DNA of 64,000 nucleotides from positions 72,356,001-72,420,000 of the forward strand of contig OZ076409.1 in the NCBI GenBank assembly GCA_964187785.1, read 5' to 3'. The DNA comes from Amphiscolops sp. MND2022 (Eukaryota). This document shows positions 1-23,671 of this stretch, one piece after another. Below the pieces are notes generated by a model. That model was not told the DNA's origin. It ran no database searches and saw only the letters and a program-made list of their open reading frames with translations. How positions within the stretch are numbered: the stretch's first letter is position 1; every line of letters begins with the position of its first letter. A program made the position numbers and the translations under genes.

Positions 1-1200
1 TCGTGGCTGTGGCATTGCACTGAACACAATAGATGTAGAGTTTTTACATTTTTTGAAAATTCGACATTTTTGATTTTTTTTCACTACTATCAGTACACTA
101 TATGTCAAAAACACCTCTGAAAAAAATTATTATTTGCTTAAAATTGGAAACCTTGGTATCCATGGTTTCTGTCGGAACCTACTCGCTGCCAAACACCCAA
201 CAGTTTGCATCCAATGTGAATTTAAAATTTTTTTCGAGGTCATAAGGGTTTCACAAGGTTTTCATAACCTAGTATTAAACTACAAACTGGTCATTTTCAA
301 CATAATATCTTTGTCGAGGCATGTCGGATATAGTCCTATTGCTCACGAACGGTCCTACTGGCAACGTAATAACCATTTATAGAAATGTAAAGTTATAAAA
401 AAATTTTTTCACCCGGTCTTCAGTCATTTTTCAGTCATTCGGAACTTAACTTAGAAAAATTTCGACCAAAATATCCATTTTTTGTCAGGTCGAAAAATCA
501 AATTAGGAATTTTAAGCAAAATTATTAACTCTGACGTAACCCATGGGGCCCATGATACTCAAAACAACGATTGACACTGGTATCAATGGCTCCAATAACA
601 TATGAGTCGCGATAAGACGTTATTTTGAACATTACGTCTCAATTGAGGTAAAGATCTCGCAAGCCAGCGATCACTGTGAAATGTGATTTCATCAAAAATT
701 TACTCCTTTTTGTCAATCACTATGTGCACAGAATGCGTAGGGTGCGTTTCAGCACTATAATGAGGTTTTTGAAGGCATCGAGTTGCTCAAAGGATGGTAT
801 GAGACATTTTTGTCCCATATACTACTGTATTTTCCAAAATTTTTAGCCCAATATCTGGAAATACAAACTTAACAAAATACTTTCAACTACTTTATTCAGA
901 GGTTACAATATAGATGAACACTGTGGTTGATCAGAAACTTTCATCTCTTTCGTTTTCCGAAATATTTCCCTTCGCATGTGTTACATTCGTAGCAGAAAAA
1001 AAAATCGAAACTGAAAAATACGCAATTTTGCTAATATAGAATCGCACTGATTGTGCCTAAAAACTCTTTAAACACTTCTAACGCAACCTTAGGCACCGAA
1101 AATGATCGAAAATGCTATTCACAATGGTGACATGTGCTCTTTCTACGATCCTGGCTGGACAAGGTTTGCATATTTTTCAAGTACCTGTCAGCTAAATCTT

Positions 1201-1248
1201 GTGATAGCCTTTTCAGTTGGCCTTGTGTCAACTTGGGAAGGCTATCAC
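1201..1248 (+). other. Long bulged hairpin, GATAGCC class (representative; in A and C units)
   Basis: GTGATAGCCTT...AAGGCTATCAC outer stem plus an AGTTG/CAACT inner stem. Confidence 0.8.
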
Positions 1249-1573
1249 ATCAAAAAACCATCAACAAAAATAATTTTTGTTTATTGGATCTTACAGTCGA
1301 TACTTTTTTTCGTGATTCTATACTACCGTTAGTATATTTCATCAGGTCACCTTACGATTGCATTCAGTCTTTGATAAAAACCTATGAACTCAAAGTCACA
1401 TTTATATATTTTTTGGCCAAAAAAACATCAAAAATATCTAAAATATATAAAATAGAGTCTTTAACATTTTTACGTTTCAAGTTTTTGCCGTTATTAAGCC
1501 AATCAACTTCCTACAGCCACGCTCTCTGTCATACTGTACAACGCCACATAGTGTTGCGACGTGCACAGTCTGT

Positions 1574-1593
1574 GGGCATGCCGAGGCATGCCC
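1574..1593. promoter_or_regulatory. Conserved 20-bp palindrome matching the p53-family response element consensus (representative; one per unit end)
   Basis: GGGCATGCCG|AGGCATGCCC matches RRRCWWGYYY x2 at 19 of 20 positions with zero spacer. It is present before all 25 junctions. Function is not demonstrated. Confidence 0.45.
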
Positions 1594-1615
1594 TTCGACG
1601 ACGTATGCCGAATAC

Positions 1616-1645
1616 CGCGGGCCTACGCCCGCGCTCCCCGGCTAG
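1616..1645 (+). other. Helitron-type 3' terminus: GC-rich hairpin plus CTAG (representative)
   Basis: A 7-bp stem lies 8 nt upstream of CTAG. Canonical Helitrons end in a subterminal hairpin followed by CTRR. Confidence 0.7.
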
Positions 1646-3634
1646 GTGGGCGGGGGTAATTCCCCAACAAAAATTACGGCCGGCGGGTTGGGTCCTGCCG
1701 GACGTTCAAATAGCGCGAAGCATCTAGTAGAAAACAAGGAGTCCTGAAACAGCGATTTTAAAATTGAACCGTTAGAATTTGGTTTTAGATTGCAAGCGGC
1801 CCTAAAATCCCCATACGAATGGAAGTTCCTGCTGGCGTTAAGCGATTGAAATAATATATAAAAAGTTATGGCCCATTTTTGGGTCACCGAGAAGGTCAAA
1901 ATGAAGAAAATTTTAACTAAGTTGCTGATAACTCAAAATGTGTTAATTTTTGGACTTTGACTGTGAAACAAGCTTGGAACCTTCATTTCGTGGCTGTGGC
2001 ATTGCACTGAACACAAAAGATGTAAAGTTTTCACATTTTTTGAAAATTCGACATTTTTGAATTTTTTTTCACTACTATCAGTACACTATATGTCAAAAAC
2101 ACCTCTGAAAAATTTTTTTATTTGCTTAAATTTAGAAACCTTGGTATCCATGGTTTCCGTCAGTACCTACTCGCTGCCAAACACTCAACAGTTTGCATCC
2201 AATGTGAAAATAAAATTTTTTTCGAGGTCTTAGGTGTTTCACAAGGATTTCTCAACTTAGTATCAATTTACAAATTGGTCATTTTGAACACATTATTTTC
2301 ATCGAAGCGTGTCATATACCGCCCTAATGCTCACGAACGGGCCTACTGGCAACGTTGGAACCATTTATAGTAATAAAAAGTTTTAAAAAAATTTTTTCAC
2401 CCCGTCTTCAGTCATTTTACACACTTTCGGAACTTAACTTAGAAAAATTTCAACCAAAAACCCATTTTTTGTCAAGTCGAAAATTCAAATTCAGCTTTTT
2501 AAGCAAAATAAATAAATCTGACATAACCACTGGGGCCCATGAAACTCAAAACCACGATTGAGACTGGTATCAATGGCTCCAATAACATATGAGTCGCGAT
2601 AAGACGCTATTTTGAGCAAAACATCTCAATTGAGGTAAAGATCTCGCAAGCCAGCGATCACTGTGAAATGTGATTTCATCAAAAATTTACTCTTTTTTGT
2701 CAATCACTATGTGCACAGAATGCGTAGGGTGCGTTTCAGCACTATAATGAGGTTTTTGAAGGCATCGAGTTGCTCAAGGGGTGGTATGAGACATTTTTGT
2801 CCCATATACTACTGTAGTTTCCAAAATTTTTACCCCAACATCTGAAAATACAAACTTGACAAAATACTTTCAACTACTTTATTCAAAGGTTACAATATAG
2901 ATGAACACTGTGGTTGATAAGAAACTTTCATCTCTTTCGTTTTCGGAAATATTTCCGTTCGCATGTGTTACATTCATAGCAGAAAAAAAAATCGAAACTG
3001 AAAAATACGCTATTTTGCTGATATAGAATCGCAATGATTGTGCCTAAAAACTCTTTAAACACTTCTAACGCAACCTTACGCACCCAAAATGATCGAAAAT
3101 GCTATTCACAATGGTGACATGTGCTCTTTCTACAATCCTGGCTGGACAAGGTTTGCATATTTTTCAAGTACCTGTCAGCTAAATCTTGTGATAGCCTTTT
3201 CAGTTGGCCTTGTGTCAACTTGGGAAGGCTATCACATCAAAAAATCATCAACAAAAATAATTTTTGTTTATTGGATCTTACAGTCGATACTTTTTTTCGT
3301 GATTCTATACTACCGTTAGTATATTTCATCAGGTCACCTTACGATTGCATTCAGTCTTTGATAAAAACCTATGAACTCAAAGTCACATTTATATATTTTT
3401 TTGCCAGAAAATAACATCAAAAATATCTAAAATATATAAAATAGAGTCTTTAACATTTTTACGTTTCAAGTTTTTGCCGTTATTAGGCCAATCAACGTCC
3501 TAGAGCCACATCCTGCCACATACTGTACAACGCCACATAGTGTTGCGACGTGCACAGTCTGTGGGCATGCCGAGGCATGCCCTTCGACGACGTATGCCGA
3601 ATACCGCGGGCCTACGCCCGCGCTCCCCGGCTAG
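1646..3634 (+). mobile_element. Unit 2, family A (1989 bp)
   Basis: Starts GTGGGCGGGGGTAATTCCCC and ends hairpin+CTAG. Appears identical to unit 7 (offset 14781; the ORF-track translations are identical). Confidence 0.8.
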
Positions 3635-4901
3635 GTGGCCGCGTCTTTTAGATGGACTTTTAGCCCTGAGGCGCGGGTAGGGTCCTGCGCCGAAACAGAG
3701 AAATTATACTACTGCACATAGCCCCGGTCCAGACACGATCTCGAAAACTGACCGTTAGAAATTCCTGAAAATTTGCATGTGGCCCCCAATTGGCGAGCAA
3801 TGAAAAAGTGTAGGAGGTCGTTTTTCCCAAATTCCACTGTGAGAGGAGATATATGAAAAAAACGGACCCCAAAATGACGAAATTTTCACTTTTTGACCAA
3901 AAATGTGACATTATCTCCTCAGACAAGGCTCGGAGCAAAATTTGACAGAACCCAAACCTGCAGCAGACTGTTAGAGCAGTGCACACAGTAAGTTTCAAGG
4001 AAATCGGATAATCACATGTGGAGAAATTGACGTTCTTCCGGCGAAATTTTTCGCAAATGCAGTCTATCTCTGCCGTTTTTTGCCCAAAATTTTTCCGAGA
4101 CCCTCTCCTAAAGGCCTCCCCTGGCCCAATTTCTTCCCAAAAAAACCATTTGGCCCTAAATACGAGGTTTCAGCGTTCCAGCATTCCCCAGTGAAAAGTT
4201 ATGGGACTTAGAAATTTTTCAAATATTTTCAAATTTTTTCTAAAAAAGTTCAGGCCGCCCAAAGTGAAGAAACTTCCACACAACTAGTATTGCAAGTGAA
4301 TGCATGTGGAAAGCCCTGCACTTGACCAGAAAAATGCCGTTTAGAACGTCTTTTTATCTTTACTTGATGTTGACTTATGATCTTTTGAGTAACGTATAAC
4401 ACGTGATCACAGTAGTGAAAATCCTAATCAATAATTTTCAAACAATAACGCATGAAAAGAATCTGGAAAGGTTCCGATGGGTCAGTCGGGATGTCTGAAG
4501 CATGTGTACATTCCCGTAGTGTATAGCGGATGTTTTGGGACTTATTAGAAATTGTGATATATTTTATAAAAGTCTTTGTTTCTCATAGAATCTCATGCAG
4601 TTGAGTACATTCCATCTCCCTCTCAGGGGAGATGTGAATGTACGTTTGCCAAATGCCTTGTAAAGTTCACATGTTTGATGGACTTAACTAAAAAAACAAG
4701 TGTGAGTTGCGTTTGCCGAATCGCTACAGCAAAAAATACTAAAACTTTAGTCAGATTGAATGGTTTTTGTCTTTAGTGTTTCTTCTTGTATAGCCGACTT
4801 CCACATCCAATTATCAACGCCCACCGTCCGTAGGCATGCCGAGGCATGCCTTTCGACGACGTATGCCAAATACCCAATGCCACACAGTCTTTCCCCGCTA
4901 G
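3635..4901 (+). mobile_element. Unit 3, short family S1 (1267 bp)
   Basis: Starts GTGGCCGCG. Stem GGCGC/GCGCC flanks GGGTAGGGTCCT. GTACATTC hairpin at 4605-4643, A/T variant palindrome at 4832-4851, ends GCTAG. Confidence 0.75.
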
Positions 4902-6893
4902 GTGCGGGGGGGAAACCCCTTCCTTTATCTTGGAGGATTCGGGTAGGGTCCTGAATCCGAGTTCAGTGCCGCCAGCTCTCAGTAGAAATCTGGGCATTTT
5001 TTTGCGATCTCGTGATCTAACCATAGGATTTTAAAGTTGGAGCGGCCCCCACCAGATTTTCCAAAGTTATTCGCCCCCCACCGGGTTCCAGCGTGATTGA
5101 AATATTTTGTCGGGGTACACGGGCGACCGTTAGGGGTCATTTTAGGGGTAAAATTTATATAATGTCGCATAACTTTTTTCCTGTTGGATTAAAACTTTGG
5201 GACCCTGCTAAAAGTTTCTTGACCGTGTTGCGGGGGCTCCGGAGGTCCAAACCAAATTTTTCTATCTTGAAGCTATCTCCAAGTACCCCCCCGCCCAAAC
5301 CGTTATTTTTCCGGAAACGCAGGTTTTTGACCCGGAAGGAGTCGTCTGAGCGCGGGGTCGTTAGGTGATGTATTGGGGACGGCCTTGAGACGAAGCGGGG
5401 GACATGTAATTTGCCGACCCCAGTTTACCCCCCGGACGGAAAATGACCGTTATATGAGCGGGATAAATGCCCCCCTCCACGTTTTACCGCTATTTCCGAT
5501 GGGAAGGAGTGGGAGTAACGCTTCGGGTGCCATATATCAAAAGTAGGTTTAGACAAGGACCTATCGGAAACATGTGGTTTGGGACCCCCTGACCCAACCC
5601 GTTAGCGGGAAATGGGGCTTCAGCCTCCTTTTTTTACAGTTAAAACCGGAAAATGGGCATTGAGGGGTAAATATCTCGTGAACGCGTGGAGCAATCGTGT
5701 CCATCACTACTACAAGGTTTCATACCCATGATATGGTGCCTTCAGGGGGGCAAACAGATTTCCGCTATCTATCACCGTTACGGACTTGGCCCCCCAGCCT
5801 AACCGCTATGTGACCGGAAATGTCACTTTTTGAGCCCAAAGGGTCAGTCCGAGCGCGGCATGGTTAGCTAACTTATTGTAGTACTCAATGAGACGAGTTG
5901 GGGGATATAGTTTCAGTCACCCCCCGTTACCCCTTGTGACCGGAAATGACCGTTATGTGGGTAAAAATGCGATTTTTGTACTTTTTGAAGGGCATTTAGG
6001 TGCGGAAGGAATGGTAAAAGGTGCTTGGACACTATATGATGTAATGGAGGTCGTGAGGAGAGCATTCGGAAGTAACCGTTACGTTGACCCCAAAGTCCCC
6101 CTGGTACCGTTAACAACCGGAAATGGCCAAATTTTGTGTTTATAGGGTACAAATGTTTGGTATTTTATGGATAAAAGTACCTGGAAGGTGTTTTAAAGGC
6201 CTCCAGAAGTGAACATAGTCATGAAACTTTGTGGGGGGTAACGGTATATAGCACCGGAAGTCCAAACCGTTAGTTACAGAATAGGTTTTTTGGTTTCAAA
6301 ATGTCTTTAGGCGTAGTTTTGTGGGTTGAATCGTCATAATATCAACTAATACGGACTTTTTTCGGAAATAAAATTTTTTCACATTAGTTTCAGGGACCTC
6401 CAATGTTTCAGTCAACATAACCGTTACATTTTGATAGCCTTTCAAGTTGGCCTGGTGTCAACTTGGAAGGGCTATCCTTCTAAAATCGTTAATCAAGAGT
6501 GTTTTTGGGTAGGTATATGTTGCATTAGTACCAATTAGAGCTTCATCAACAGTTTGCCAACGGCAAAAACGATGTCGTGATAATTCCGTTATAAGAATAT
6601 TAATTAACAAATTGTTTCCAAAGTTGATTTTTTCCATTCGAAATGTGTCCCAATGCCACCAAATTGAATAAAATAATAAATGGTATTGACTAAAACTAAA
6701 TAACATTGAAAAAGAAGCTCAACATTTTTAATAGGTCTCATAATGGAAGCTGAAACCTCACGTTTTAACTTAATTAACGTCAACGCCACATACTTTACAT
6801 CAACGTCCGCCGTCTGTGGGCATGCCGAGGCATGCCCTTCGACGACGTATACCAATTACATATATATCTACACCCACCCGCGGTAGCAGCTAG
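4902..6893 (+). mobile_element. Unit 4, GC-richer family C (1992 bp)
   Basis: Starts GTGCGGGGGGGAAACCCC. Body is homologous to units 17, 23 and 25 but not recognisably to family A. GATAGCC hairpin at 6433-6476, palindrome at 6818-6837. Confidence 0.75.
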
Positions 6894-9130
6894 GTGGGCG
6901 GGGGTAATTCCCCAACAAAAAAATCGGCCGGCGGGTCGGGTCCTGCCGGCCGTCCAAAATCAAAATCCTCCTAGTAGAAAACGGCATGTCAAACGAGCTA
7001 TTTTTTTATTTAACCATACGAATTTCACCATTTTTTGCATGCGGCCCTGAAATGGCCATACGAGACGAAGTTCCTGCTGACGTTTTGCGATGTAAATGTT
7101 TTATAAAAAGTTATGGCCTATTTGTCATTCACCTAGAAGGGTAAAATGAGGAAAATTTTAGCAAAGTCGCTGATAACTCAAAATGTGTTAATTTTTGGAC
7201 TTTGACTGTGAAACAAGCTTGGAACCTTCATTTCGTGGCTGGGGCATTGGACTGAACACAAAAGATGTAAAGTTTTTACGTTTTTTGAAAATTCGACATT
7301 TTTGAAATTTTTTTCACTACTATCAGTACCCCATATGTCAAAAACACCTCAGAAAAAAATTTTTATTTGCTTTAAATTGGAAACCTTGGTATCCATGGTT
7401 TCTGTCGGGACCTACTCGCAGCCAAACACTTAACAGTTTGCATCCAATGTGAAAAGAAAATTTTTTTCGGGGTCATAAGCGTTTCACAAGGATTTCTCAA
7501 CTTAGTATCTATTTACAAATTGGTCATTTTGAACACATTATTTTCATCGAAGCGTGTCAGATACCACCCTAATGCTCACGAATGGGCCTACTGGCAACGT
7601 TGGAACCATTTTTAGTAATAGAAAGTATTAAAAAAATATTTTCACCCGGTCTTCAGTCATTTTTCAGACATTCGGTACTTAACTTAGAAAAATTTCGCAT
7701 CAAAAACCCATATTTGGTAGGGTCGAAATTTGAAATTCAGTTTTTTATGCAAAATTATTAACTCTGACGTAACCAGTGGAGCCCATGATACTCAAAATCA
7801 CGATTGGGACTGGTATCAGTGGCTCCAATAACATATGAGCCGCGATAAGACGTTATTCAGAGCAAACGCTCTAAATCGAAGTAAACATCTCTGAAGCCTG
7901 GGATCACAGTGAAATGTGATATCACCAAAAGTTTACTCTTTTTTGTCAATCACTATGTACACAGAGTGCGTAGGGTGAGTTTCAGGACTATAATGAGGTT
8001 TTTGAAGTAATCGCGCTGCTCAAGGGGTGGTATGAGACTATTTTTTCCCATATACTACTACATTTCCATAAATTTGCAGTCCATTGTCTTGGAAAGATAA
8101 CTTCACAAAAACAATTTTTGTACTCTATTCAGTTATTAGAATAAAGTTGAACACTGTGGTTGATCAGAAATGCTCAATTCTTTTGGTTTTTAAAAAAATT
8201 CCTTCGCATTCGTTACATTTGTGGAAGGAAGGTTATCAGTAGCTCCAAAAAAAAACGAAATTTAGCACGAACAGACATGCAACGATGCAAAGCAAAAACG
8301 TTTTTACAACTTCCGACGTCATTATTTTACCCAAGAAGATTGAAAATATCATTCGCAATGCTGTCATTCGCTATATATACGATCGCGGTCAATTTACAAA
8401 CATTTAGATTTCATTGTTCTGCTTGAAAACCAATTTTTGTCAGGTCGAAATTTTAAATTTTGCCTGGGGAGCAATACCCTTCACGCTGAAGTAAACAGTG
8501 GGGCCCAAGTTACTCAAAAACAAGAAAGAGACTGCTACAATATGTCCTAATAACATATGGACCACGATAGTACACTTTTCACACAAAAAACTCTCATCCG
8601 AAGTAAATATGTTGAAAGCTTTTAATCACCGTGAGAAGTGATTTCATCAAAAAGTAACTCTTTTTTGTCAATCACTATTTACACAGAATTTGTAAAGTTA
8701 GTTTGAGTCATGAAATGAGGCTTTACCGTAATATGGGTTGCTCAAGGTGTTATATAAGACAAAAACTTCCTCTTTTCTACTAGCTTCTTCAAATATTTCA
8801 ACCCTTTGTCACAATAAGTTAATATTCAAAATATCTTTGAAATGTATCTTTATGTTGGGGTGAAGTCTAAGAACAATAACTATGATCGAAGAATGCTAGT
8901 ACTGGTGTTTGAACCATGTCCGGATGAACAAATCACAAAATCATCAAAAAATTGTTCCCTTTTTTGGTTATTTTGGCAGTACTAAAAATGTTAGCTGATA
9001 AATAATTTTTTCGATGGCACCATTGGATTCCTCTCAAAAAGTTGGTTATATGACCTGTGTAATAACCCCGTATCTTTTCAATTTAAATATATTTAAAAAG
9101 CCAACTATTTTGACCAAAATCCTAAAAATC

Positions 9131-10405
9131 ATACCATTTCCTAAAAATTTTCAAATGCACCCCATTTGACGTATAAGATAAGCACAGAAAACTATCATTT
9201 ACCGATCAACTCTACTCCCATTGTAGATTATTAGAATTTTGTTTAGAATGAATTTTGATGGATATTAAAAAAATTTTGAACCCTCCAAAAATGGGCCAAA
9301 ATTACACGAAAAAATTGACCTTAAAATACCAAAATGTCAAAAAATCATCAAAACCACGGCTTCTTGGGGTTCTATCAACTCCGCGTGGTCCACAGAGTAT
9401 GCTAAAACAGGATTTACCCGTTTTTGAGCAATATGTGAAAAAGCCGACATTTTTGGGAAAGAAAAACATACCATTTCCTAAAAAAATTCAAATGCACGTA
9501 ATTTGCCGTATTAGAATAGCACAGAAAACTATCACATACCAATCAACTCTACTTTCATTGCAGATGAACAGAATTTTGTTTAGAATAAATTTTACCGGAT
9601 AATAAAAAAATTTGAATCCTTCAAAAATGGGCCAAAATTACACGAAAAAATGGACCTTAAAAATTTAAAATGTCAAAAAATCGTCAAAACAACAGCTTCT
9701 TGGGGTTCTATCAACTCCACGAGGTCCACAGAGTATGCTAAAACAGGTTTTACCCGTTTTTGAGCAATATGTGAAAAAGCCGACATTTTTGGGAGAGAAA
9801 AACATACCATTTCCTAAAAAAATTCAAATGCACGCCATTTGCCGTATGAAAATAGCACAGAAAACTATCACATACCAATCAACTCTACTTTCATTGCAGA
9901 TGAACAGAATTTTGTTTAGAATAAATTTTACCGGATAATAAAAAAATTAGATTCCTTCTAAAATGGGCCAAAATTACACGAAAAAAAGGACCTTAAAATT
10001 TTAAAATGTCAAAAAATCATCAAAACCACGGCTTCTTGGGGTTCTATCAACTCCACGTGGTCCACAGAGTATGCTTTATAGAGAGAATAAAACCCGGTTT
10101 TACCCATCTTTGAGCAAAATGTGAAAATACCGACATTTTTGGAAAAGAAAAAAATACCATTTTCTAATAAATTTCAAATGCACGCCATTTGCTGTATGAG
10201 AATAACACAGAAAGCTGTCACATACCGATCAACTCTACTTCCATTGTAGATTATCAGAAGTTTGTTTTGAATAAATTTTGATGGTTAATAAAAATAATTG
10301 AATCCATCAAAAATGGGCCAAAATTACACGAAAAAATTGACCTTAAAATATCAAAATGTCAAAAAATCATCAAAACCACAGTTTCTTGGCGTTCTATCAA
10401 CTCCA
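9131..10405 (+). repeat. Internal ~336-bp tandem repeat, ~3.8 copies
   Basis: ATACCATTT anchor at 9131, 9468, 9804 and 10154. The third copy carries a ~14-bp insertion near 10076 that unit 15 lacks. End coordinate is approximate. Confidence 0.9.
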
Positions 10406-10688
10406 TATGATACCAAACCAGGTACTGCCAATCGTTTGAGTTATAATAAAAAAACGTCTTTTTTGGCAAGAATTCCATACCATAAATAATGTTCCATATA
10501 AGAAGCGAATCATTTCAGATATATACCCTGTTCATTTTTTTAATATTACCGATTATTAATTTAATAGATGTTTTGAATGTGAGCTTCCTAAAAGGTTCAG
10601 GTGTGATGTTACGTAAAGAGAACCTTAGTTTCATCGAAATCTCAATTGAATATGTCCAATCCTAACCATCAGATAACAAGAAACACTT

Positions 10689-10731
10689 AAGTACATTCCA
10701 TCTCCCCATCGGGGGAGATGAGAATGTACTT
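10689..10731 (+). other. Long bulged hairpin, GTACATTC class (representative; in L, S1 and S2 units)
   Basis: AAGTACATTC-CATCTCCCC-[ATCG]-GGGGAGATG-(A)-GAATGTACTT. Confidence 0.8.
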
Positions 10732-11663
10732 TCGAGAAGCCAAATACGTCCAACATTCAAACTTTTGTAACTTTGTATGTAACTCCTGAAACGAAGAAGG
10801 AATAAAATTGTTTCTGGTACATACATGAGTCTTTACTTCAGCTTCTATTTCTGCTGAACAAAACCATTCGACTCTTTTGCCGGAGTTAAGATCGATTGTA
10901 TTACCCAGTGAACAAAGGCATGACTGAAAACGTTTACTACTTTGTTCATAATTTTCCGGCCTTCCGAAATGATGAAACGTCCACATAACTAAGATAGCAA
11001 GTGAATGACTGCGAAATGCACCTTATTAGATGAGGTAAATAACGTGTAAAACTCTCCTTTATCCTAACATGAGGTTGAGTAATGATCATTTGAGAATAGT
11101 TTGATATGTGAATACAATAGTATAAAACAAGTACATTTTATATGAATAACGCCGTGGAAAGCGTTCAGAAAGGACAGTAGGCTTGTTTGGAACATGTATG
11201 TGTGGTGTCCCTTGGTGGCGTTCGCTTAGTGTATATGTCGAGGGGTATTCGAGTTGTTATGATAGAATTTACACACAAGTCTTTTGTTTTTTGGTTTTTT
11301 TAAAATGTCGTTAAGTACCTGCATTCTATCCCCTTCTCAGAGATGACGTGAAGTTACGTTTGCTAAATAAATGTCATCGAAAGATCACACTCCCGACGAA
11401 ATTAACTATCTTAACACGTGTTTAGAATTTTAAATAAACAACCGTATAAGATTATTATATTTCATTGAGTTTGATGAAGTCTTTTGTTCTTCTCACTACT
11501 ATTTCAACCAATACACATATCCGTTACCATATCACATGTCTCCATTAGTACAACGCCACATAGCGTTCCGACGCCCACAGTCTGTGGGCATGCCGAGGCA
11601 TGCCCTTCGACGACGTATGGCAAATGGAGCCATGCCCGCCGTCTTTACGGCGGTAGCGGCTAG

Positions 11664-14600
11664 GTGGGCGGGGGTAATTCCCCAACTAAAAAATCGGCCG
11701 GCGGGTAGGGTCCTGCCGGCCGTCCAAAATCAAAAATATACTAGTAGAAAACGGCCGGTCAAACGAGCTATTTTTTTATTTAACCGTTAGAATTTGGGTT
11801 TAGATTGCATGCGGCCATGAAATGGCCATACGAATCGAAGTTCCTGCTGACGTTTTGCGATTGAAACACTTTATAAAAAGTTATGGCCAATTTGTCAGTC
11901 ACCTAGAAGGGCAAAATGAGGAAAATTTTAACAAAGTCGCTAATAACTCAAAATGTGTTATTTTTTGGACTTTGACTGTGAAACAAGCTTGGAACCTTCA
12001 TTTCGTGGCTGTGGCATTGCACTGAACGCAAAAGATGTAAAGTTTTTACATTTTTTGAAAATTTGACATTTTTGAAATTTTTTTCACTACTATCAGTACC
12101 ATATATGTCAAAAACACCTCAGAAAAAAAATTTTATTTGCTTTAACTTGGAAACCTTGGTATCCATGGTTTCTGTCGGAACCTACTCGCAACCAAACAAC
12201 CAACAGTTTGCATCCAATGTGAAAATAAAAAATTTTTCTGGGTCATAAGCGTTTCACAAGGATTTCTCAACTTAGTATTAATTTACAAAATGGTCATCTT
12301 GAACACAATATTTTCATCGAGGCTTGTCGGCTATAGCCTTAATGTTCTAGAACGGTCCCACTGGCAACGTAGGAACCATTTATAGTAATAGAAAGTTTAA
12401 AAAATATATTTTCACCCTGTCTTCAGTCATTTTTCAGTCATTCGGAACTTAACTTAGAAAAATTTCGACCAAAATACCCATTTTTTGACAGATCGAAAAT
12501 TCAAATTCAACTTTTTAAGCAAAATTAGTAACTCTGACGTAACCAGTGGGACTCATGATACTCAAAAACACGATTGGGACTGGTACCAATGGCTCCAATA
12601 TCATATGAGCCGCGATAAGACGTTATTTTGAGCAATACGTCTCAATTGAGGGAAACATCTCGCAAGCCTGGGATCACAGTTAAAAGTGATTTCGTCAAAA
12701 ATTTACTCTTTTTCGTCAATCACTATGTACACAGAGTGCGTAGGGTGAGTTTCAGCACTATAATGCGGTTTTTGAAGGAATCGGTCTGCTCAAGGGGTGG
12801 TATGAGACATTTTTTTTGCATGTAGTACTATATTTCTCAAAACTTTTAGCCCAATATCTCGAAAAGCTCACTTCGCAAATTACTTTCAGTTACTCTATTC
12901 GAAGCTTAGAATATATATGAACAGTGTGGTTGATCAGAAACTCTTGACTATTTTGTTTTTGGAAAAAAACTGCCTTGCATGTGTTACATTAGTGGCAGGA
13001 AAAATACCAGTAGCTCCAAAAATCACAATTTTGGACGGACAGACCTGCAATGATGCAAAGCAAAAACGTTTCAACAACTTCTGGCGCCACTTTTTTAACC
13101 CAAGAGGTTCGAAATTACTATTAACAATGCTGACATTCGCTATAAATAAGATCGAGGTCAATTTACTAACACTTAGGTTATACATTTATATCTGAGAAAC
13201 CATTCTTTGTCAGGTCGCAATTTTAAATTTAGTTTGGGAAGCAATACTTTTCACTCTGAAGCAAACCGTTGGGCCCAAATTACTCAAAAACTACAAAAAG
13301 ACTGTCACCATATGCCCTAATAGCATATGAGATTCGACCGTATGTTTTTAACACAAAAACTCTCATCCGAAGTAAACATGTTGAAAGCCTTGAATCACCG
13401 TGAGAAATGATTTCATCAAAAAATATTCCTTTTTCGTCAATCTTTATCTACACAGAACACGTTGTGTCATTTTCAGCCGTGAAATGAGCTTCTACCGTAA
13501 TATGGGTTGCTCAAGGTGTTGTATAAGACAAAAACTTCCTCTTTTCTACTATCTTCTTCAAATATTTCAACCCTTTGTCACAAGAAGTTAATATTCAAAA
13601 TCTCTTTGAAATGTTTCTTTAGGTTGGGGTGAAGTGTTAGAACAATAATTATGATCGAAGAATGATAGTATTGGTGTTTGGACCATGTCCGGATGAACAA
13701 ATTGCAAAATCATGAAAAATTTCTTACCATTTTTGGTCATATTGTCAGTACTAAAAATGTTAGCTGAAAAAGAATTTTTTTGATGGCACCATTGGATTCC
13801 TCTCAAAAAGTTGGTTATATGACCTGTGTAATAACCCCGTATCTTTTCAATTTAAATATATTTAAAAAGCCAACTATTTTGACCAAAATACTAAAAATCA
13901 TACCATTTCCTAAAAATTTTCAAATGCACCCCATTTGACGTATAAGAATAGCACAGAAAACTATCACATACCGATCGACTCTACTTCCATTGTAGATTCC
14001 CAGAATTTTGTTTAGAACAATTTTTGACGGATGCAAAAAAATTTAAACCCTCCAAAAAAGGGCCAAAATTACACGAAAAAATTGACCTTAAAATTTTAAA
14101 ATGTCGAAAAATCATCAAAACCACAGCTTCTTGGGGTTCTATCAACTCCACGTGGTCCACAGAGTATGTTAAAACAAGTTTTACCCGTATTTGAGCAATA
14201 TGTGAAAAAGCCGACTTTTTTGGGAATGAAAAACATACCATTTCCTAAAAAATTTCAAACGCACCCCATTTGACGTATAAGAATAGCACAGAAAACTATC
14301 ACATACCGATCGACTCTACTTCCATTGTAGGTTACCAGAATCTTGTTTAGAACAATTGTTGACGGATGCAAAAAAAAATTTAAACCCTCCAAAAATGGGC
14401 CAAAATTACACGAAAAAATTGACCTTAAATTTTTAAAATGTCAAAAAATCATCAAAACCACAGCTTCTTGGGGTTCTATCAACTCCACGTGGTCCACAGA
14501 GTATGCTAAAACAGGTTTTACATGTTTCTGAGCTATATGTGAAAAAACCGACATTTTGGGGAAGAAAAACATACCATTTCTTAAAAAATTTCAAATGCAC

Positions 14601-16426
14601 GCCATTTGCCGTATGAGAATAGCACAGAAAACTATCACATACCGATCAACTCTACTTCTATTGTAGATTATCAGATTTTTGTTTAGAACAAATTTTTATG
14701 GATATAAAAAATTTTTAAACCCTCCAAAAATGAGCCAAAATAACACGAAAAAATGGACCCTAAATTTTTAAAATGTCAAAAAATTATCCAAACCACAGCT
14801 TCTTGGGGTTCTATCAGCTCCACGTGGTCCACAGAGTATGCTAAAACAGGTTTTGCCCGTTTTTGAGCAGTATATGAAAAAGCCGACATTTTTGGGGAAG
14901 AAAAACATACCATTTCCTAAATAATTTCAAATGCAGGCAATTTGCCGTATGAGAGTAGCACAGAAAACTATCACACACCGATCAACTCTACTTCTTTTGT
15001 AGATTATCAGAATTATGTTTAGAGTAAAGTTTTATGGATATGAAAAATTTTTATACCCTCCAAAAATGGGCCAAAATGACACGAAAAAATTGACCTCAAA
15101 TTTTTAAAATGTCAAAAAATTATCCAAACCACAGCGTCTTGGCGTTCTATCAACTCCAAATGACCTTCAGAGTATACCAAACCAGGTATTGCCAATCTTT
15201 TGAGCAATATTTAAAAACACCGACTATTTGGCAAGAACACCATAATATGTTCCATATAAGAAGTGAATCATTCCACATATATACCCGGTCTAATATTTCC
15301 AAATTAGCGATAACATTTATACATGATGGTTTTTGAAAGTGAGCTTTATAAGAGGTTGAGATGTAATAATACGTAAATGGACCCTAAGTTTCATTGAAAT
15401 CTCAATGGAATACGTCCAATCAACTTCAATCCTAACTATTATATAACAAAAAACACTTGAGTACATTCCATCTCCCCATCGGGGGAGATGAGAATGTACT
15501 TTTCAAAAGCCAAAAACTTCGAATTTTAAATCTTTTGTAACATTGTATGTAACTGTTGAAACGATGAACGAATGAAAATGCTTCTAGTACCTTCATCAAT
15601 TTTTGCTTCAGCTCCTATTTCTGCAGAACAAAACCAAAAGACACACTTACAGCAGTTAAGTTCGATTGTATAACTCAGTGAGTAAAGGTATGACTGAGGA
15701 AGTTCACAAGTTGTTTCAAAAGTTTCCGGCCTTCCAAAATCATGAAACGTCCACACAACCAAGATAGCAAGTGAAAGAATGCTGAATGCACCTTATTAGA
15801 TGAGATAAATAATGTGTGGAACTTGCCATTATCTCAAGATGACGTTGATTTATGATCTTTTAAGGATAGTTCGATATGTGACCACAATAGTGGAAAACTT
15901 ATTACTATTTGAAGAACACCGTGGAAAGCGTTCAGAAAGGACAGTATATTTGTTTCGAGCATGCATGCGTGTGTTCCTTTGGTGACGTTAGCTTAGTGTA
16001 CATGACGGAGGTATTCGAGAGATTATGATAGAGTTTACTCACAAGTCTTTGTTTTTTTAAACTTTCTATGCCGTTGAGTACATTCGTAAGGTACATCCAT
16101 CCCCTTCTCTGGGAATGTACGTTTGCCAAATGACTGTCATCCAAAATTCGTAATCCGGACGAGTTTAACTACATAAACATGTGATGAGCGTTTTCAATTC
16201 ACAACCGAATAACATTTTTTTTCTCGAAAATGATGATGGTTTTGATTTTGATGTCTTCTACTTTTATCATCATGCAAACGACCTTACCATGTCTCTCTTC
16301 TGTCGTCATTTGTACAACGCCACATAGCGTTCCGACGCCCACCGTCTGTGGGCATGCCGAGGCATGCCCTTCGACGACGTATGCCAAATGAGCCATACCC
16401 GCACTCTGGAGTGCGGTAGCGGCTAG
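11664..16426 (+). mobile_element. Unit 6, family L (4763 bp)
   Basis: Same layout as unit 5 but a different subfamily. Terminal hairpin CCGCACTC-TG-GAGTGCGG. Near-identical to unit 18 over most of its length. Confidence 0.78.
13900..15240 (+). repeat. Internal ~336-bp tandem repeat, ~4 copies
   Basis: Anchor at 13900, 14235, 14571 and 14907. End coordinate is approximate. Confidence 0.9.
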
Positions 16427-18415
16427 GTGGGCGGGGGTAATTCCCCAACAAAAATTACGGCCGGCGGGTTGGGTCCTGCCGGACGTTCAAATAGCGCGAA
16501 GCATCTAGTAGAAAACAAGGAGTCCTGAAACAGCGATTTTAAAATTGAACCGTTAGAATTTGGTTTTAGATTGCAAGCGGCCCTAAAATCCCCATACGAA
16601 TGGAAGTTCCTGCTGGCGTTAAGCGATTGAAATAATATATAAAAAGTTATGGCCCATTTTTGGGTCACCGAGAAGGTCAAAATGAAGAAAATTTTAACTA
16701 AGTTGCTGATAACTCAAAATGTGTTAATTTTTGGACTTTGACTGTGAAACAAGCTTGGAACCTTCATTTCGTGGCTGTGGCATTGCACTGAACACAAAAG
16801 ATGTAAAGTTTTCACATTTTTTGAAAATTCGACATTTTTGAATTTTTTTTCACTACTATCAGTACACTATATGTCAAAAACACCTCTGAAAAATTTTTTT
16901 ATTTGCTTAAATTTAGAAACCTTGGTATCCATGGTTTCCGTCAGTACCTACTCGCTGCCAAACACTCAACAGTTTGCATCCAATGTGAAAATAAAATTTT
17001 TTTCGAGGTCTTAGGTGTTTCACAAGGATTTCTCAACTTAGTATCAATTTACAAATTGGTCATTTTGAACACATTATTTTCATCGAAGCGTGTCATATAC
17101 CGCCCTAATGCTCACGAACGGGCCTACTGGCAACGTTGGAACCATTTATAGTAATAAAAAGTTTTAAAAAAATTTTTTCACCCCGTCTTCAGTCATTTTA
17201 CACACTTTCGGAACTTAACTTAGAAAAATTTCAACCAAAAACCCATTTTTTGTCAAGTCGAAAATTCAAATTCAGCTTTTTAAGCAAAATAAATAAATCT
17301 GACATAACCACTGGGGCCCATGAAACTCAAAACCACGATTGAGACTGGTATCAATGGCTCCAATAACATATGAGTCGCGATAAGACGCTATTTTGAGCAA
17401 AACATCTCAATTGAGGTAAAGATCTCGCAAGCCAGCGATCACTGTGAAATGTGATTTCATCAAAAATTTACTCTTTTTTGTCAATCACTATGTGCACAGA
17501 ATGCGTAGGGTGCGTTTCAGCACTATAATGAGGTTTTTGAAGGCATCGAGTTGCTCAAGGGGTGGTATGAGACATTTTTGTCCCATATACTACTGTAGTT
17601 TCCAAAATTTTTACCCCAACATCTGAAAATACAAACTTGACAAAATACTTTCAACTACTTTATTCAAAGGTTACAATATAGATGAACACTGTGGTTGATA
17701 AGAAACTTTCATCTCTTTCGTTTTCGGAAATATTTCCGTTCGCATGTGTTACATTCATAGCAGAAAAAAAAATCGAAACTGAAAAATACGCTATTTTGCT
17801 GATATAGAATCGCAATGATTGTGCCTAAAAACTCTTTAAACACTTCTAACGCAACCTTACGCACCCAAAATGATCGAAAATGCTATTCACAATGGTGACA
17901 TGTGCTCTTTCTACAATCCTGGCTGGACAAGGTTTGCATATTTTTCAAGTACCTGTCAGCTAAATCTTGTGATAGCCTTTTCAGTTGGCCTTGTGTCAAC
18001 TTGGGAAGGCTATCACATCAAAAAATCATCAACAAAAATAATTTTTGTTTATTGGATCTTACAGTCGATACTTTTTTTCGTGATTCTATACTACCGTTAG
18101 TATATTTCATCAGGTCACCTTACGATTGCATTCAGTCTTTGATAAAAACCTATGAACTCAAAGTCACATTTATATATTTTTTTGCCAGAAAATAACATCA
18201 AAAATATCTAAAATATATAAAATAGAGTCTTTAACATTTTTACGTTTCAAGTTTTTGCCGTTATTAGGCCAATCAACGTCCTAGAGCCACATCCTGCCAC
18301 ATACTGTACAACGCCACATAGTGTTGCGACGTGCACAGTCTGTGGGCATGCCGAGGCATGCCCTTCGACGACGTATGCCGAATACCGCGGGCCTACGCCC
18401 GCGCTCCCCGGCTAG
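16427..18415 (+). mobile_element. Unit 7, family A (1989 bp)
   Basis: Apparent exact copy of unit 2, with different neighbours on both sides. Confidence 0.8.
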
Positions 18416-20402
18416 GTGGGCGGGGGTAATTCCCCAACAAAAATTACGGCCGGCGGGTTGGGTCCTGCCGGACGTCAAATAGTGTGAAACATCCAGTAGG
18501 AAACGGCGACATAAATCAGCGATTTTAAAATTTAACCGTTAGAATTCGGACTTGGAGTGCATGCGGCCCCAAAATGCCCATACGAATCGAAGTTCCTGCT
18601 GACGTTAAGCGATAAAAACATTTTATAAAAAGTTATGGCCCATTTTACGTTCACCTATAAGGGTAAAATGAGGAAAATTTTTACAAAGTCGCTGATAACT
18701 CAAAATACATTAATTTTTGGACTTTGACTGTGAAACAAGCTTAGAACCTTCATTTCGTGGCTGTAGCATTGCACTGAACACAAAAGATGTAAAGTTTTTA
18801 CAATTTTTGAAAATTCGACATTTTTGATTTTTTTTTCACTACTATCAGTACACTATATGTCAAAAACACCTCTGAAAAAAATTATTATTTGCTTAAAATT
18901 GGAAACCTTGGTATCCATGGTTTCTGTCGGAACCTACTCGCTGCCAAACACCCAACAGTTTGCATCCAATGTGAAATTAAAATTTTTTTCGAGGTCTTAG
19001 GTGTTTCACAAGGATTTCTCAACTTAGTTTCAATTTACAAATTGGTCATATTGAACACAATATTTTCATCGAAGCTTGTCAGATACCGCCCTAATGCTCA
19101 CTAATGGGCCTACTCGCAACGTTGGAACCGTTTATAGTAATAGAAAGTTTAAAAAAAATATTTTCACCCGGTCTTCAGTCATTTTTCAGTCATTCGGAAC
19201 TTAACTTAGAAAAATTTCGACCAAAATACCAATTTTTTGTCAGGTCGAAAAATCAAATTCAGATTTTTAAGCAAAATTATTTACTCTGACGTAACTAGTG
19301 GGCCCCATGATACTCAAAAACACGATTGGGACCGGTACCAAGGGCTCCAATTTCATATGAGCCGCGATAAGACGTTATTTTGAGCAACACGTCTCAATAG
19401 AGGTAAACATCTCGCAAGCCTGGGGTCACAGTGAAAAGTAATTTCATCAAGAATTTACTCATTTTTGTCAATCACTATGTGCACAGAGTGCGTAGGGTGC
19501 GTTTCAGCACTTTAATGAGGTTTTTGAAGGCATCGGTCTGCTCAAGGGGTGGTATGAGACATTTTTTTCCTGTATACTACTGTATTTTCCAAAACTTTTA
19601 GCCAATTATCTGGAAAAACTAACTTGACAAAATACTTTCAACTACTTTATTCAAAGGTTACAATATAGATGAACACTGTGGTTGATCAGAAACTTTCATC
19701 TCTTTCGTTTTCCGAAATTTTTCCCTTCGCATGTGTAACATTCGTAGCAGAAAAAAAAATCGAAACTGAAAAATACGCAATTTTGCTAATATAGAATCGC
19801 AATGATTGTGCCTAAAAACTCTTTAAACACTTCTAACGCAACCTTACGCACCCAAATTGATCGAATATGTTATTCACAATGGTGACATGTTCTCTTTCTA
19901 CGATCCTGGCTGGACAAGGTTTGCATATTTTTCAAGTACCTGTCAGCTAAATCTTGTGATAGCCTTTTCAGTTGGCCTTGTGTCAACTTGGGAAGGCTAT
20001 CACATCAAAAAACCATCAATAAAAATAATTTTTGTTTATTGGATCTTACAGTCGAAACTTTTTTTCGTGATTCTATACTACCGTTAGTATATTTCATCAG
20101 GTCACCTTACGATTGCATTCAGTCTTTGATAAAAACCTATGAACTCAAAGTCACATTTATATATTTTTTTGCCAGAAAATAACATCAAAAATATCTAAAA
20201 TATATCAAATAGAGTCTTTAACATTTTTACGTTTCAAGTTTTTGCCGTTATTAGGCCAATCAACGTCCTAGAGCCACATCCTGCCACATACTGTACAACG
20301 CCACATAGTGTTGCGACGTGCACAGTCTGTGGGCATGCCGAGGCATGCCCTTCGACGACGTAAGCCGAATACCGCGGGCCTACGCCCGCGCTCCCCGGCT
20401 AG
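18416..20402 (+). mobile_element. Unit 8, family A (1987 bp)
   Basis: Family A body with the standard termini. Its 5' variant is shared with unit 10. Confidence 0.78.
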
Positions 20403-21681
20403 GTGGTCGTTAGCATGGGATTTTCTTTATGAGCGTAGTCCACTTTTTTTAGGCCGGGGTAGGGTCCCGGGCCGTTACCAATTTCTTACGGAGGAAAAAT
20501 GTGAAAATCTGCGAGTTTAAAAAATTGGCCCGTACGATTTGGCTGAAAATTGGCATACAGCATCGTCTTGGTAAACAAATGACTTTGTCCTAGTGACATT
20601 TTGCCCAGAAAATTCAAAAAGTTGGTCAAATTGAAAATTTTTTGACCGTCTAAGGCTAAAATTTGACTTTTTCGCTTTTTTTGGTCAATTTCCTCAGAAC
20701 TGGTTGATTTTGGTGAAGTAAGTCATAAGAGGTTATAAGGTCTGCAAATAGCCATCAATTGGCTTGCATAATCAGATTTTGTCAAAAGTGTTTAGTTTTT
20801 TCAAAATTTCACACTTTTTTTTCATTTCAGTGTTTTTTGATACAATTTATTGAATTTTTACTAAGTTCCACTAAATATTTTTAAAATGTTTTTAAAAAAC
20901 CTTTTTTTGCACGTTTTTGATGTTTTTTGCTCTCCCATATAGGTTTTCGCATACGTGGAACCTGAATCTGACAACGAAATAATTTTATTCCGCAGTTCAA
21001 CTTACGCCATTTTTAATAGTGAAAAATCACTCATTTTCAATCTAACGAGTGAAAATATCAGAATTTAAAAACCTAAAGTTGAGTTTAAGGCGACTTACAG
21101 GTAGAAACAAATGCTCAGAAACAAACTGATTTCTTGTATTAGCTAAAGAAAGCCTTTAAAATTCTTTTTACTTTCTTTAAATCAAAATTCGACACTTTTC
21201 ATGAAATTTGTCAGTGGAAAAAATTTATCATTTTTTTAAATTTAAAACTTGCTTTGTTGGTCATTTCCGTTAGTCATTAGTAGCTGTGTAATGCTCCAAA
21301 GCCTTTCAAGTTCTTTTGACCCTATTTGAAAATTTTTGATACTGCATAATCAATCCGAGAGAACGAAACAGTTGTGTACATTCCATCTCCCTCTTGGGGG
21401 AGATGAGAATGTACTTCCTAAAGTCCAGGTACTACAGATCATATTTGGTTTTATGCGACGCCCTCTATGCTAGTGCATATAAATACAAGTTGTTTGGCTG
21501 GATTTTGCTTCTGACTTGACGTATACTGTACGTTTGGTACTGACAATACCCATCATTTACATAACAAACGTCAACGCCACATACCCTCACCAACGTCCAT
21601 AGTCCGTAGGCATGCCGAGGCATGCCTTTCGACGACGCGCGCCAAACACAAGCGCGCCCGCACTTTTGCGGTAGCGGCTAG
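20403..21681 (+). mobile_element. Unit 9, short family S2 (1279 bp)
   Basis: Starts GTGGTCG with a unique, very AT-rich body. Has the GGCCGGGG-TAGGGT-CCCGGGCC stem-loop, a GTACATTC hairpin at 21376-21414, the A/T variant palindrome at 21608-21627 and terminal hairpin CCGCA-CTTT-TGCGG. Confidence 0.75.
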
Positions 21682-23671
21682 GTGGGCGGGGGTAATTCCC
21701 CAACAAAAATTACGGCCGGCGGGTTGGGTCCTGCCGGACGTCAAATAGTGTGAAACATCCAGTAGGAAACGGCGACATAAATCAGCGATTTTAAAATTTA
21801 ACCGTTAGAATTCGGACTTGGAGTGCATGCGGCCCCAAAATGCCCATACGAATCGAAGTTCCTGCTGACGTTAAGCGATAAAAACACTTTATAAAAAGTT
21901 ATGGCCCATTTTACGTTCACTTAGAGAGGTAAAATGAGGAAAATTTTAACAAAGTCGCTGATAACTCAAAATGTGTTAATTTTTGGCTTTTGACTGTGAA
22001 ACAAGCTTAGAACCTTCATTTCGTGGCTGTGGCATTGCACTGAACACAAAAGCTGTAAAGTTTTCACATTTTTTGAAAATTCGACATTTTTGAAATTTTT
22101 TTCACTACTATCAGTACCCCATATGTCAAAAACACCTCAGAAAAAAAAATTTATTTGCTTTAAATTGGAAACCTTGGTATCCATGGTTTCTGTCGGAACC
22201 TACTCGCAGCCAAACACCCAACAGTTTGCATCCAATGTGAAATAAAAAATTTTTTCGAGGTCATAAGCGTTTCACAAGGTTTTCATGATTTAGTATTAAA
22301 TTACATAGTGGTCATTTTAAACATAAAATTTTGGTCCAGGCATGTCGGATATAGTCTGAATGCTCACGAACGGTCCTACTGGCAACGTAGGAACCATTTA
22401 TAGTAATAAAAAGTATTAAAAATTTTTTTTCACCCGGTCTTCAGTCATTTTTCAGACATTCGGAACTTAACTTAGAAAATTTTCGAACCAAATACCCATT
22501 TTTTGTCAGGTCGAAAATTGAAATTCAGCTATTAAAGCAAAATATTTTACTCTGACGTAACCAGTGGGGTCCATGATACTCAAAAATACGATTGGGACTG
22601 GTACCAATGGCTCCTATATCATATGAGCCGCGATAAGACGTTATTTTGAGCAATATGTCTCAATTGAGGTAAACATCTCGCAAGCCTGGGATCACAGTGA
22701 AATGTAATTTCATCAAAAAATTACTCATTTTTGTCAATCACTATGTGCATAGAGTGGGTAGGGTGAGTTCCAACACTATAATGAGGTTTTTGAAGGCATC
22801 GGGTTGCTCAAGGGGTGGTATGAGTCATTACTTTCCTATATACAACTGTATTTTCAAAAACTTTTAGCCCATTATCTGGAAAAACTAACTTGACAAAATA
22901 CTTTCAATTACTTCATTCAAAGGTTACAATATAAATGAACACTGTGGTTGATCAGAAACTTTCATCTCTTTCGTTTTCCGAAATAACTCCTTTCAAATGT
23001 GTTACATTTGTAGCAGGAAAAAAAACTGAAACTAAAAAATACGCGATTTTGCTGAGATAGAATCGCAATGGTTGCGCCTAAAATCTCTTTAAATACTTCT
23101 AACGCGACCTTACGGACCCAAAATGATTGAAAATGCCATTCACAATGCTGACATGTGCTCTTTCTACGATCCTGGCTGGACAAGTTTTGCATTTTTTTCA
23201 AGTACCTGTTAACTGAACATTGTGATAGCCTTTCAAGTTGGCCTTGTGTCAACTTGGGAAGGCTGTCACTTCAAAAAACTGTCAACAAAAATACCATTTG
23301 TTTATAGGATATTGCTGTCGATGCTTCACTTCGTGATTCGATCATGTCGTGAGTTCCTTCCATCAGGTCAGCTAACATTTGGATTCAGTGTTGGATAAGA
23401 ACCTATGATTTTCATGACAATTTTAGTTCTTTTTTGCTAACAAAAAGTACGAATAAATGATATAAAACATATTTGTGACCTCTAGGAAGTTTAACTTTAC
23501 CTTTATTTACCGTTACCATCGCCACCCACCCCCTACGACCTCGCAGTGTCCTCATTACAACGCCACATAGTGTAGCGACGCCCACAGTCTGTGGGCATGC
23601 CGAGGCATGCCCTTCGACGACGTATGGCAAATATAGCGTTAGCCCGCGGTCACTACCGCGGTAGCAGCTAG
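21682..23671 (+). mobile_element. Unit 10, family A subfamily (1990 bp)
   Basis: Body resembles units 24 and 26. Terminal hairpin CCGCGGT-CACT-ACCGCGG. Confidence 0.78.

Follow-up and report, generated by a model that had tools for sequence, protein, structure and literature searches.

Helitrons are thought to insert almost anywhere, between A and T or between T and T. Apart from the HLE1 and HLE2 (Helentron, Helitron2) groups of Helitron-like elements (HLEs), the Paramecium Helitrons have been described as a third HLE clade with strict orientation and a site-specific telomeric repeat target (accessible part of PMC13085455), and unclassified HLEs have been reported in 19 genomes (accessible part of PMC11417382). 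The available text of the latter source also mentions one Sphagnum HLE2 family that carries a GIY-YIG domain and, together with that of PMC4067079, a Phytophthora proto-Helentron with a 5' TT, a 5' stem-loop and a 3' CTAG. The bacterial IS91, as far as the available text of PMC13181058 describes it, inserts without duplication beside CTTG or GTTC, rarely CTCG or CTGG, at its origin end, and has CTCG at ter. For Helraiser (available text of PMC5876387) and IS91 alike, the described reaction comprises a 5' nick, unwinding, a nick after the 3' tetramer and joining to the target. Replitrons are defined by a Y1 Rep without helicase and by short direct terminal repeats (PMC10288648).

The window analysed here is a stretch of 64,000 nucleotides, C1:72356001-72420000 of a 1.07-Gb genome. 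It contains 25 copies of GCTAGGTG, all on the + strand, where shuffled sequences give an expectation of 0.43; as the initial annotation stated, these copies are always followed by G or C (25/25) and never by TC or T (0/25). GCTAGGTG is a joint, in which CTAG closes one element and GTG opens the next, and is not a terminal repeat. Cutting the window at this 8-mer yields units of 1.27, 1.97-1.99, 2.79 and 4.75-4.77 kb, which belong to at least six families with hardly anything in common except their ends. The 64 kb contain no long ORF (none is longer than 198 aa), and an Rfam search of positions 1-20000 returned no match. The features referred to below are, with a caret marking cuts throughout the text:

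1..64000, + strand: whole window, 24 complete and 2 partial units, head-to-tail, non-coding
1574..1602, + strand: 3' subterminal motif, GGCATGCC twice followed by TTCGACGAC, of the element that runs to 1645; common to most families of this array
1616..1633, + strand: 3' hairpin (stem 1616-1622/1627-1633), 8 nt before the terminal CTAG; from folding, shuffle z about -3
1641-1648, + strand: GCTAGGTG junction under study, cut 1645^1646 with one G ambiguous
1642..1645, + strand: terminal CTAG, which closes the upstream element and is also a target-type tetramer for the next one, as judged from solo copies and empty sites
1646..3634, + strand: complete non-autonomous element, GTG...CTAG, 1,989 bp; it shares 100% identity with the unit at 16427-18415, whose neighbours are different
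1680..1701, + strand: 5' subterminal hairpin, G-rich and conserved at its top, variable between families in its stem
3635..4901, + strand: non-autonomous element of a 1,267-bp family
4902..6893, + strand: non-autonomous element of a second 2-kb family, further copies at 56628-58598 and 60586-62578
6894..16426, + strand: two elements of 4.76 kb, each with about four tandem copies of a 336-bp repeat inside

Three further units of the 4.76-kb family start at 31620, 41168 and 45929. The 336-bp tandem repeat of this family (window 9125-10405 and four more) is a possible satellite seed.

End anatomy

The 3' subterminal motif is present at all 25 window junctions. It is near-invariant over 109 distinct 3' ends, which were themselves selected on its first 18 bases, and the adjoining columns are variable; some families in the same arrays do without it. 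The genome contains 4919 exact copies of the 28-nt motif, and among the first 100 listed 6 are isolated and the others clustered. Window positions 1574-1593 fit the consensus of p53 response elements (two half sites, RRRCWWGYYY) at 19/20 positions, and this p53-like motif is common to families whose transposases (RepHels, see below) are just 33-43% identical to the first one found. By its sequence, the motif may act as a host-factor site, located immediately before the element that follows. Literature linking p53 elements with Helitrons was not found, and viral contigs held 0 copies of the motif and 0 RepHel relatives.

The last four bases are CTAG or CTGG in 109/109 motif-bearing array ends, and CTTG in one solo copy. 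The claim that a hairpin always precedes CTAG applies to the site at 1641 and to 19/25 window junctions (z -2.2 or lower), and was slightly overstated, the hairpin being weak or absent in 6/25. The best-conserved feature of either end is the 5' hairpin, about 35-56 nt inside the element, the stem of which varies over at least 59 5'-end types and the arms of which pair in runs of at least 5 in 68% of cognate combinations versus 13% of non-cognate ones; these patterns suggest that it is likely the transposase-binding origin. Neither this hairpin nor the IS91-like target rule and the array size described below figure in the initial annotation. Terminal inverted repeats were not detected in the window units: the longest exact inverted match between the two ends is 5-6 nt in 24/24 units, no better than with a non-cognate end.

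Solo copies, empty sites and the target rule

Genome-wide, the bases next to ends reading ...GCGGTAGCDGCTAG are GTG in 1189 cases, A or T in 15, and G plus A, C or G in 0, i.e. about 99% of this end class (1189/1204) directly abuts the GTG of another element. Eight complete solo copies show the following tetramers (host/own last): CTCG/CTAG, CTTG/CTGG, CTGG/CTAG, CTTG/CTGG, CTTG/CTTG, CTCG/CTAG, CTTG/CTAG and CTAG/CTAG. The left and right tetramers are unequal in 6/8 solos, and thus the tetramer is not duplicated; they are equal in two (L042 and L068). The first of these (L042:5616-6871) interrupts a Gypsy-type gag region, and another solo, L039, interrupts a repeat that lies next to a hAT-like ORF.

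For four solos, paralogues were searched for the corresponding empty site. For L039, 6/7 paralogues read CTTG^GTGAACC, with a single tetramer joined to the right flank; for L036, 3/7 are exact (CTGG^GA) and another 2, which carry a substitution, are collinear; for L063, 3/7 read CAGCTTG^A; and for L035, 0/7 were informative. Empty sites thus read CTNG^N, which is not a target between A and T or between T and T. From solos and empty sites together it follows that the element is GTG...CT(A/G/T)G, one G being assignable to either side, and that it inserts directly 3' of a host CTNG without target duplication. The non-canonical start proposed in the initial annotation is thereby borne out, since solos start with GTG after CTNG and not with TC between A and T, and the cut, considered not fixable from the window, now lies at 1645^1646 by virtue of solos and empty sites elsewhere, still with the one ambiguous G.

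The same data dispose of the idea that GCTAGGTG is a terminal direct repeat, as in Replitron- or Crypton-type elements, or that CTAG is a 4-bp target duplication. The same 8-mer does border every array unit, and the two solos with equal tetramers on both sides conform to this idea, but the other 6/8 do not, free 3' ends continue with A, T or G, the empty sites contain a single tetramer, and the partner protein is a Y2 Rep with helicase instead of a Y1 Rep or tyrosine recombinase. Solos and empty sites refute both variants, to which we assign a negligible probability.

Among host-flanked 5' ends (solos and array starts), CTNG precedes 18/19, in a set that was partly chosen by requiring CTNG and in which part of the supposed host flanks may in fact be element ends that escaped recognition; the one 5' end without CTNG before it belongs to a decayed pair of duplicates, L064/L065. 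When sites were anchored on the 5' hairpin, CTNG+GTG was located 28-66 nt upstream at 187/194 distinct sites, the 7 misses being three mutated junctions and four unrelated matches.

Autonomous partners

Autonomous partners were identified inside the same arrays; they encode RepHel proteins of 2,200-2,600 aa comprising a HUH-Y2 Rep and a Pif1 helicase (PF14214 and PF05970 in profile searches), with HUH motifs I-III and two tyrosines that align with those of HLE1 and HLE2. The first one, a 13.7-kb element with GTG...CTAG ends in an array gap at C1:24.0 Mb, has an intact 2,373-aa ORF with Helitron_like_N, PIF1 and C-terminal GIY-YIG domains. A search with the Rep core gave 135 genome matches of 31-100% identity, many of them in open frames of 2,200-2,600 aa, clustered on C1, C2, C3 and C7; the 34 matches listed at C1:70.5-76.5 Mb are all on the + strand. 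Intact transposase genes are numerous, with identical copies on several chromosomes; one intact RepHel lies at C1:71016846-71028894. Ten autonomous loci were fetched, with 5' ends within reach for three; the CTAG^GTG end was found in 10/10 and the 3' motif of the window in 7/10. A RepHel partner with GTG...CTAG ends supports the atypical rolling-circle element suspected initially.

A second conserved ORF (ORF2) is present in 8/10 of the fetched loci. Its product is a predicted OB-fold protein (pLDDT 84) with a model resembling RPA, CST and MCM10 (Foldseek E 4e-5 to 6e-4; best Z 8.5, rmsd 3.8, 116 aligned). Two loci carry yet another ORF, of about 220 aa (L108:1732-2388 and L047:2363-3028, 47% identical), which has no Pfam match and whose start may resemble SGNH hydrolases. 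According to Pfam, the GIY-YIG domain is present in 15/19 relatives and in 1/5 further RepHels of this genome. Its key residues look intact in several of the genome's own families and are decayed or cut off in L113, L119 and L125; because of this decay in some families, the domain is probably accessory.

RepHels that are 86-88% identical to one query (L107-L110) carry different 3' ends, and distant RepHels share one; by sequence comparison, 3' ends seem to have been swapped within arrays. End swapping of this kind is what would be expected if excised circles entered arrays by homologous recombination via the shared 3' motif, not by transposase strand transfer, and the 60-80 bp around the motif are indeed common to very different families. 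We nevertheless regard this route as quite improbable, as families without the 3' motif are found in these arrays too and their junctions are no less exact, and as terminator bypass within an array would also give end swapping.

Placement among Helitron-like elements

Trees of Rep plus helicase were calculated, without outgroup, for 9 HLE1, 6 HLE2 (all from this genome) and 16 clade sequences, with P0355 left out and the helicase of P0327 mis-anchored. They place the clade on a long stem with support 100/100 and the 9 HLE1 references on a separate branch, also with 100/100. In the best trees HLE2 is monophyletic (85/95) with the clade outside, but the AU test does not reject a constrained nesting deep within HLE2 (p-AU 0.29 and 0.48; fast constrained trees, 2000 replicates). 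Phylogenetic placement of the partner thus yields a single long-branch clade apart from HLE1. Identity with HLE1 is rejected by the GTG instead of TC start, the lack of the target between A and T, and the separate branch. The same genome also contains ordinary HLE1 and several HLE2 families (L127-L144), dispersed and not arrayed by their listed positions.

The clade shares with HLE1, including Helraiser, the HUH-Y2 and Pif1 RepHel, the polarity, a 3' hairpin followed by CTAG, the absence of target duplication, an RPA-like passenger gene and non-autonomous derivatives. The HLE1 combination of 3' hairpin and CTRR is seen here as well (hairpin in 19/25 junctions, CTAG/CTGG in 109/109 motif ends). 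It differs from HLE1 in the GTG start, the CTNG target instead of one between A and T, 3' ends that are also CTGG or CTTG, the conserved 5' hairpin, the C-terminal GIY-YIG domain, and a motif II that is two residues longer and lacks RG (EFQxxxxNxxHxH versus ExQxRGxxHxH in HLE1 and HLE2); the match to Helraiser is confined to the helicase (E 2e-6). With HLE2 it has in common hairpins at both ends, a long ORF and, in some relatives, an OTU domain, whereas it lacks terminal inverted repeats and targets at T and T or A and T, and sits on its long stem branch. DUF6570 was found in 0/19 relatives and 0/5 of the genome's own RepHels versus 10/10 HLE2 reference loci that hold the region, and a profile-profile comparison for this domain retrieved just a GGQ stretch at 0.9% probability. 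Profiles of the region before Rep gave no significant match among the three groups, and an AP endonuclease gave no hit in the clade.

The Paramecium Helitrons resemble the clade, as the best trees place it, in falling outside HLE1 and HLE2, and also in being strictly oriented and site-specific, and their 3' CCAA, which matches the telomeric CCCCAA target, possibly reflects an analogous end-equals-target logic. They differ in the telomeric target, and the accessible part of PMC13085455 reports no junction arrays; one copy inspected by eye (Hel01Copy001) has an ordinary EFQxRGxxHxH motif II, unlike the clade, and an ORF that ends soon after the helicase, without GIY-YIG. Six short back-translated clade motifs had 0 matches in the Paramecium supplement, a comparison weakened by codon choice and line breaks. 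IS91 shares a target tetramer like its terminal tetramer, the absence of duplication, subterminal palindromes and a Y2 HUH protein (available text of PMC13181058), yet has no helicase, no GIY-YIG domain and no arrays, as opposed to the 2,200-2,600-aa RepHel of the clade; the likeness, drawn by analogy, is one of way of working, not of membership. From Replitrons the elements are set apart by the Y2 Rep with helicase and the unequal solo tetramers.

A search with the Rep region gave 741 clusters at 50% identity, of which the best 150 were examined; lower ranks may be ordinary Helitrons. An atlas search retrieved nothing beyond generic Helitron clusters. In a distant subclade from metagenomes, ORF2 is present at 13/37 loci. 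There are just three occurrences of the 5' hairpin motif in 503 kb of metagenome loci; all three lie outside the ORF, and CTAG or CTTG precedes them by 46-62 nt. In L165 the motif follows the 3' part of the element (CTAG^TT) and in L188 a hairpin with CTAG (CTAG^TC), both with the look of a tandem junction, and in the third, L197, the cut position is ambiguous. According to these three cases the GTG start is local, and the hairpin with a CT-G tetramer is general. The TT or TC start after CTAG in two of these relatives is reminiscent of the proto-Helentron.

In the accessible text of the sources searched, among them PMC11417382, PMC5148889, PMC10288648, PMC4067079, PMC13085455 and bioRxiv 10.64898/2026.09.17.752431, with subscription journals, Repbase and Dfam outside the search, we found no description of such ends, target rule or arrays. 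The elements are of Helitron type and probably form an undescribed clade; of the "atypical or undescribed class" suggested initially, the atypical rolling-circle element stands and "class" is too strong. The unclassified clusters of HELIANO may include this clade.

Megabase arrays

The window belongs to a one-orientation array region at about C1:70.45-76.48 Mb, i.e. about six million bases of same-direction copies. The left end lies at 70,454,838, junctions extend to 76.48 Mb, and there is an interruption near 76.02-76.10 Mb; 14/14 samples from C1:70.90-75.75 Mb contain junctions, all on the + strand, versus 0/6 samples from outside or at 76.10 Mb. Elsewhere, two arrays of opposite polarity diverge with their 5' ends inward at C2:102.67-102.70 Mb (16 kb apart) and at C3:2.4-3.1 Mb, and at C1:23.977-23.980 Mb (L037) + and - strand arrays meet tail to tail.

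Within the window, elements start directly after a 3' end in 25/25 cases, although 470 CTNG sites are available on that strand. The order of units has no periodicity and neighbours are no more alike than distant units; a simple satellite is rejected. The identity between units 1 and 6 extends over the 1,989 bp and ends 7 and 4 nt past the cuts, and another array likewise contains identical units apart from each other, with identity ending at the junctions. Unit-by-unit insertion at junctions fits these data better than block duplication; conversion or assembly collapse could be the source of single identical pairs.

We also considered that elements insert at CTNG without preference for junctions, and that the arrays grew later by unequal exchange, gene conversion or rolling-circle concatemers. 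Tandem Helitron arrays from terminator bypass are known (available text of PMC5876387 and PMC4067079), families cluster locally and form same-family runs, and the common unit ends favour in-register exchange. Such growth is unlikely to account for the arrays, however, given the lack of a higher-order period and of any excess similarity between neighbours, the different neighbours on both sides of 100% identical units, and the interleaving of at least 59 5'-end types and of RepHel families of 31-100% identity. Adjacent same-family copies are also non-identical: five of 3.07 kb at C1:75.0 Mb differ by 1-7%, a run that could stem from old unequal exchange or concatemers.

Proposed mechanism

The reading we favour, and hold to be probable, is that the motif is the junction of two non-autonomous, divergent Helitron-type elements of the form GTG...CT(A/G/T)G, which insert 3' of CTNG without duplication and home to junctions. 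Its observed basis consists of the ends, the target tetramer, the absence of duplication, RepHel partners with the same ends, and the arrays; junction homing as the origin of the head-to-tail arrays is a likely further step. By the chemistry of Helraiser and IS91, RepHel would bind the 5' hairpin and nick the top strand at CTNG^GTG, the Pif1 domain would unwind, and the predicted OB-fold protein would coat the single strand; after a second nick behind the terminal CTAG, the strand or circle would be joined to a CTNG target. The GIY-YIG domain may serve to nick either the target or the opposite strand. As in IS91, one type of tetramer (CTNG) precedes the cuts at donor start, donor end and target alike, and therefore every existing junction, CTAG^GTG plus hairpins, would be both a permitted target and a copy of the origin; an insertion there would keep the orientation and regenerate two junctions. 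The junction sequence of a circle would equal that of an array.

Against strict homing, seven intact solos have both ends free, and against abutting, the L068 site has two elements 16 nt apart. In one array of 8 units the leftmost unit is 92% identical to its nearest copy and the rightmost 99%, and this age gradient, from a limited sample, hints that a newcomer targets the 3' end; about 9/15 free 3' ends belong to decayed or 5'-truncated copies without followers, which hints against such targeting.

Implications

Tentatively, and with somewhat less than even confidence, the clade may represent a major eukaryotic rolling-circle lineage beside HLE1, HLE2 and the Paramecium clade, with many hosts (as judged from hundreds of protein clusters), IS91/plasmid-type CTNG nicking, its own ends as a haven, and polarised multi-megabase domains that dozens of families build together by transposition only, possibly centromeric or heterochromatic. 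An IS91-like tetramer rule in such a clade links eukaryotic and bacterial rolling-circle chemistry, and the many intact transposases provide material for testing Helitron target choice. Finders based on TC/CTRR or inverted repeats would overlook such elements, and many genomes may hence contain them without annotation. An inserter that is precise, makes no duplication, keeps its orientation and renews its own target is also of interest as a tool. Junction homing, if true, would be the DNA-transposon counterpart of telomeric retrotransposon arrays such as those of Drosophila telomeres, and would allow satellite-like domains of megabase size to arise with no unequal exchange.
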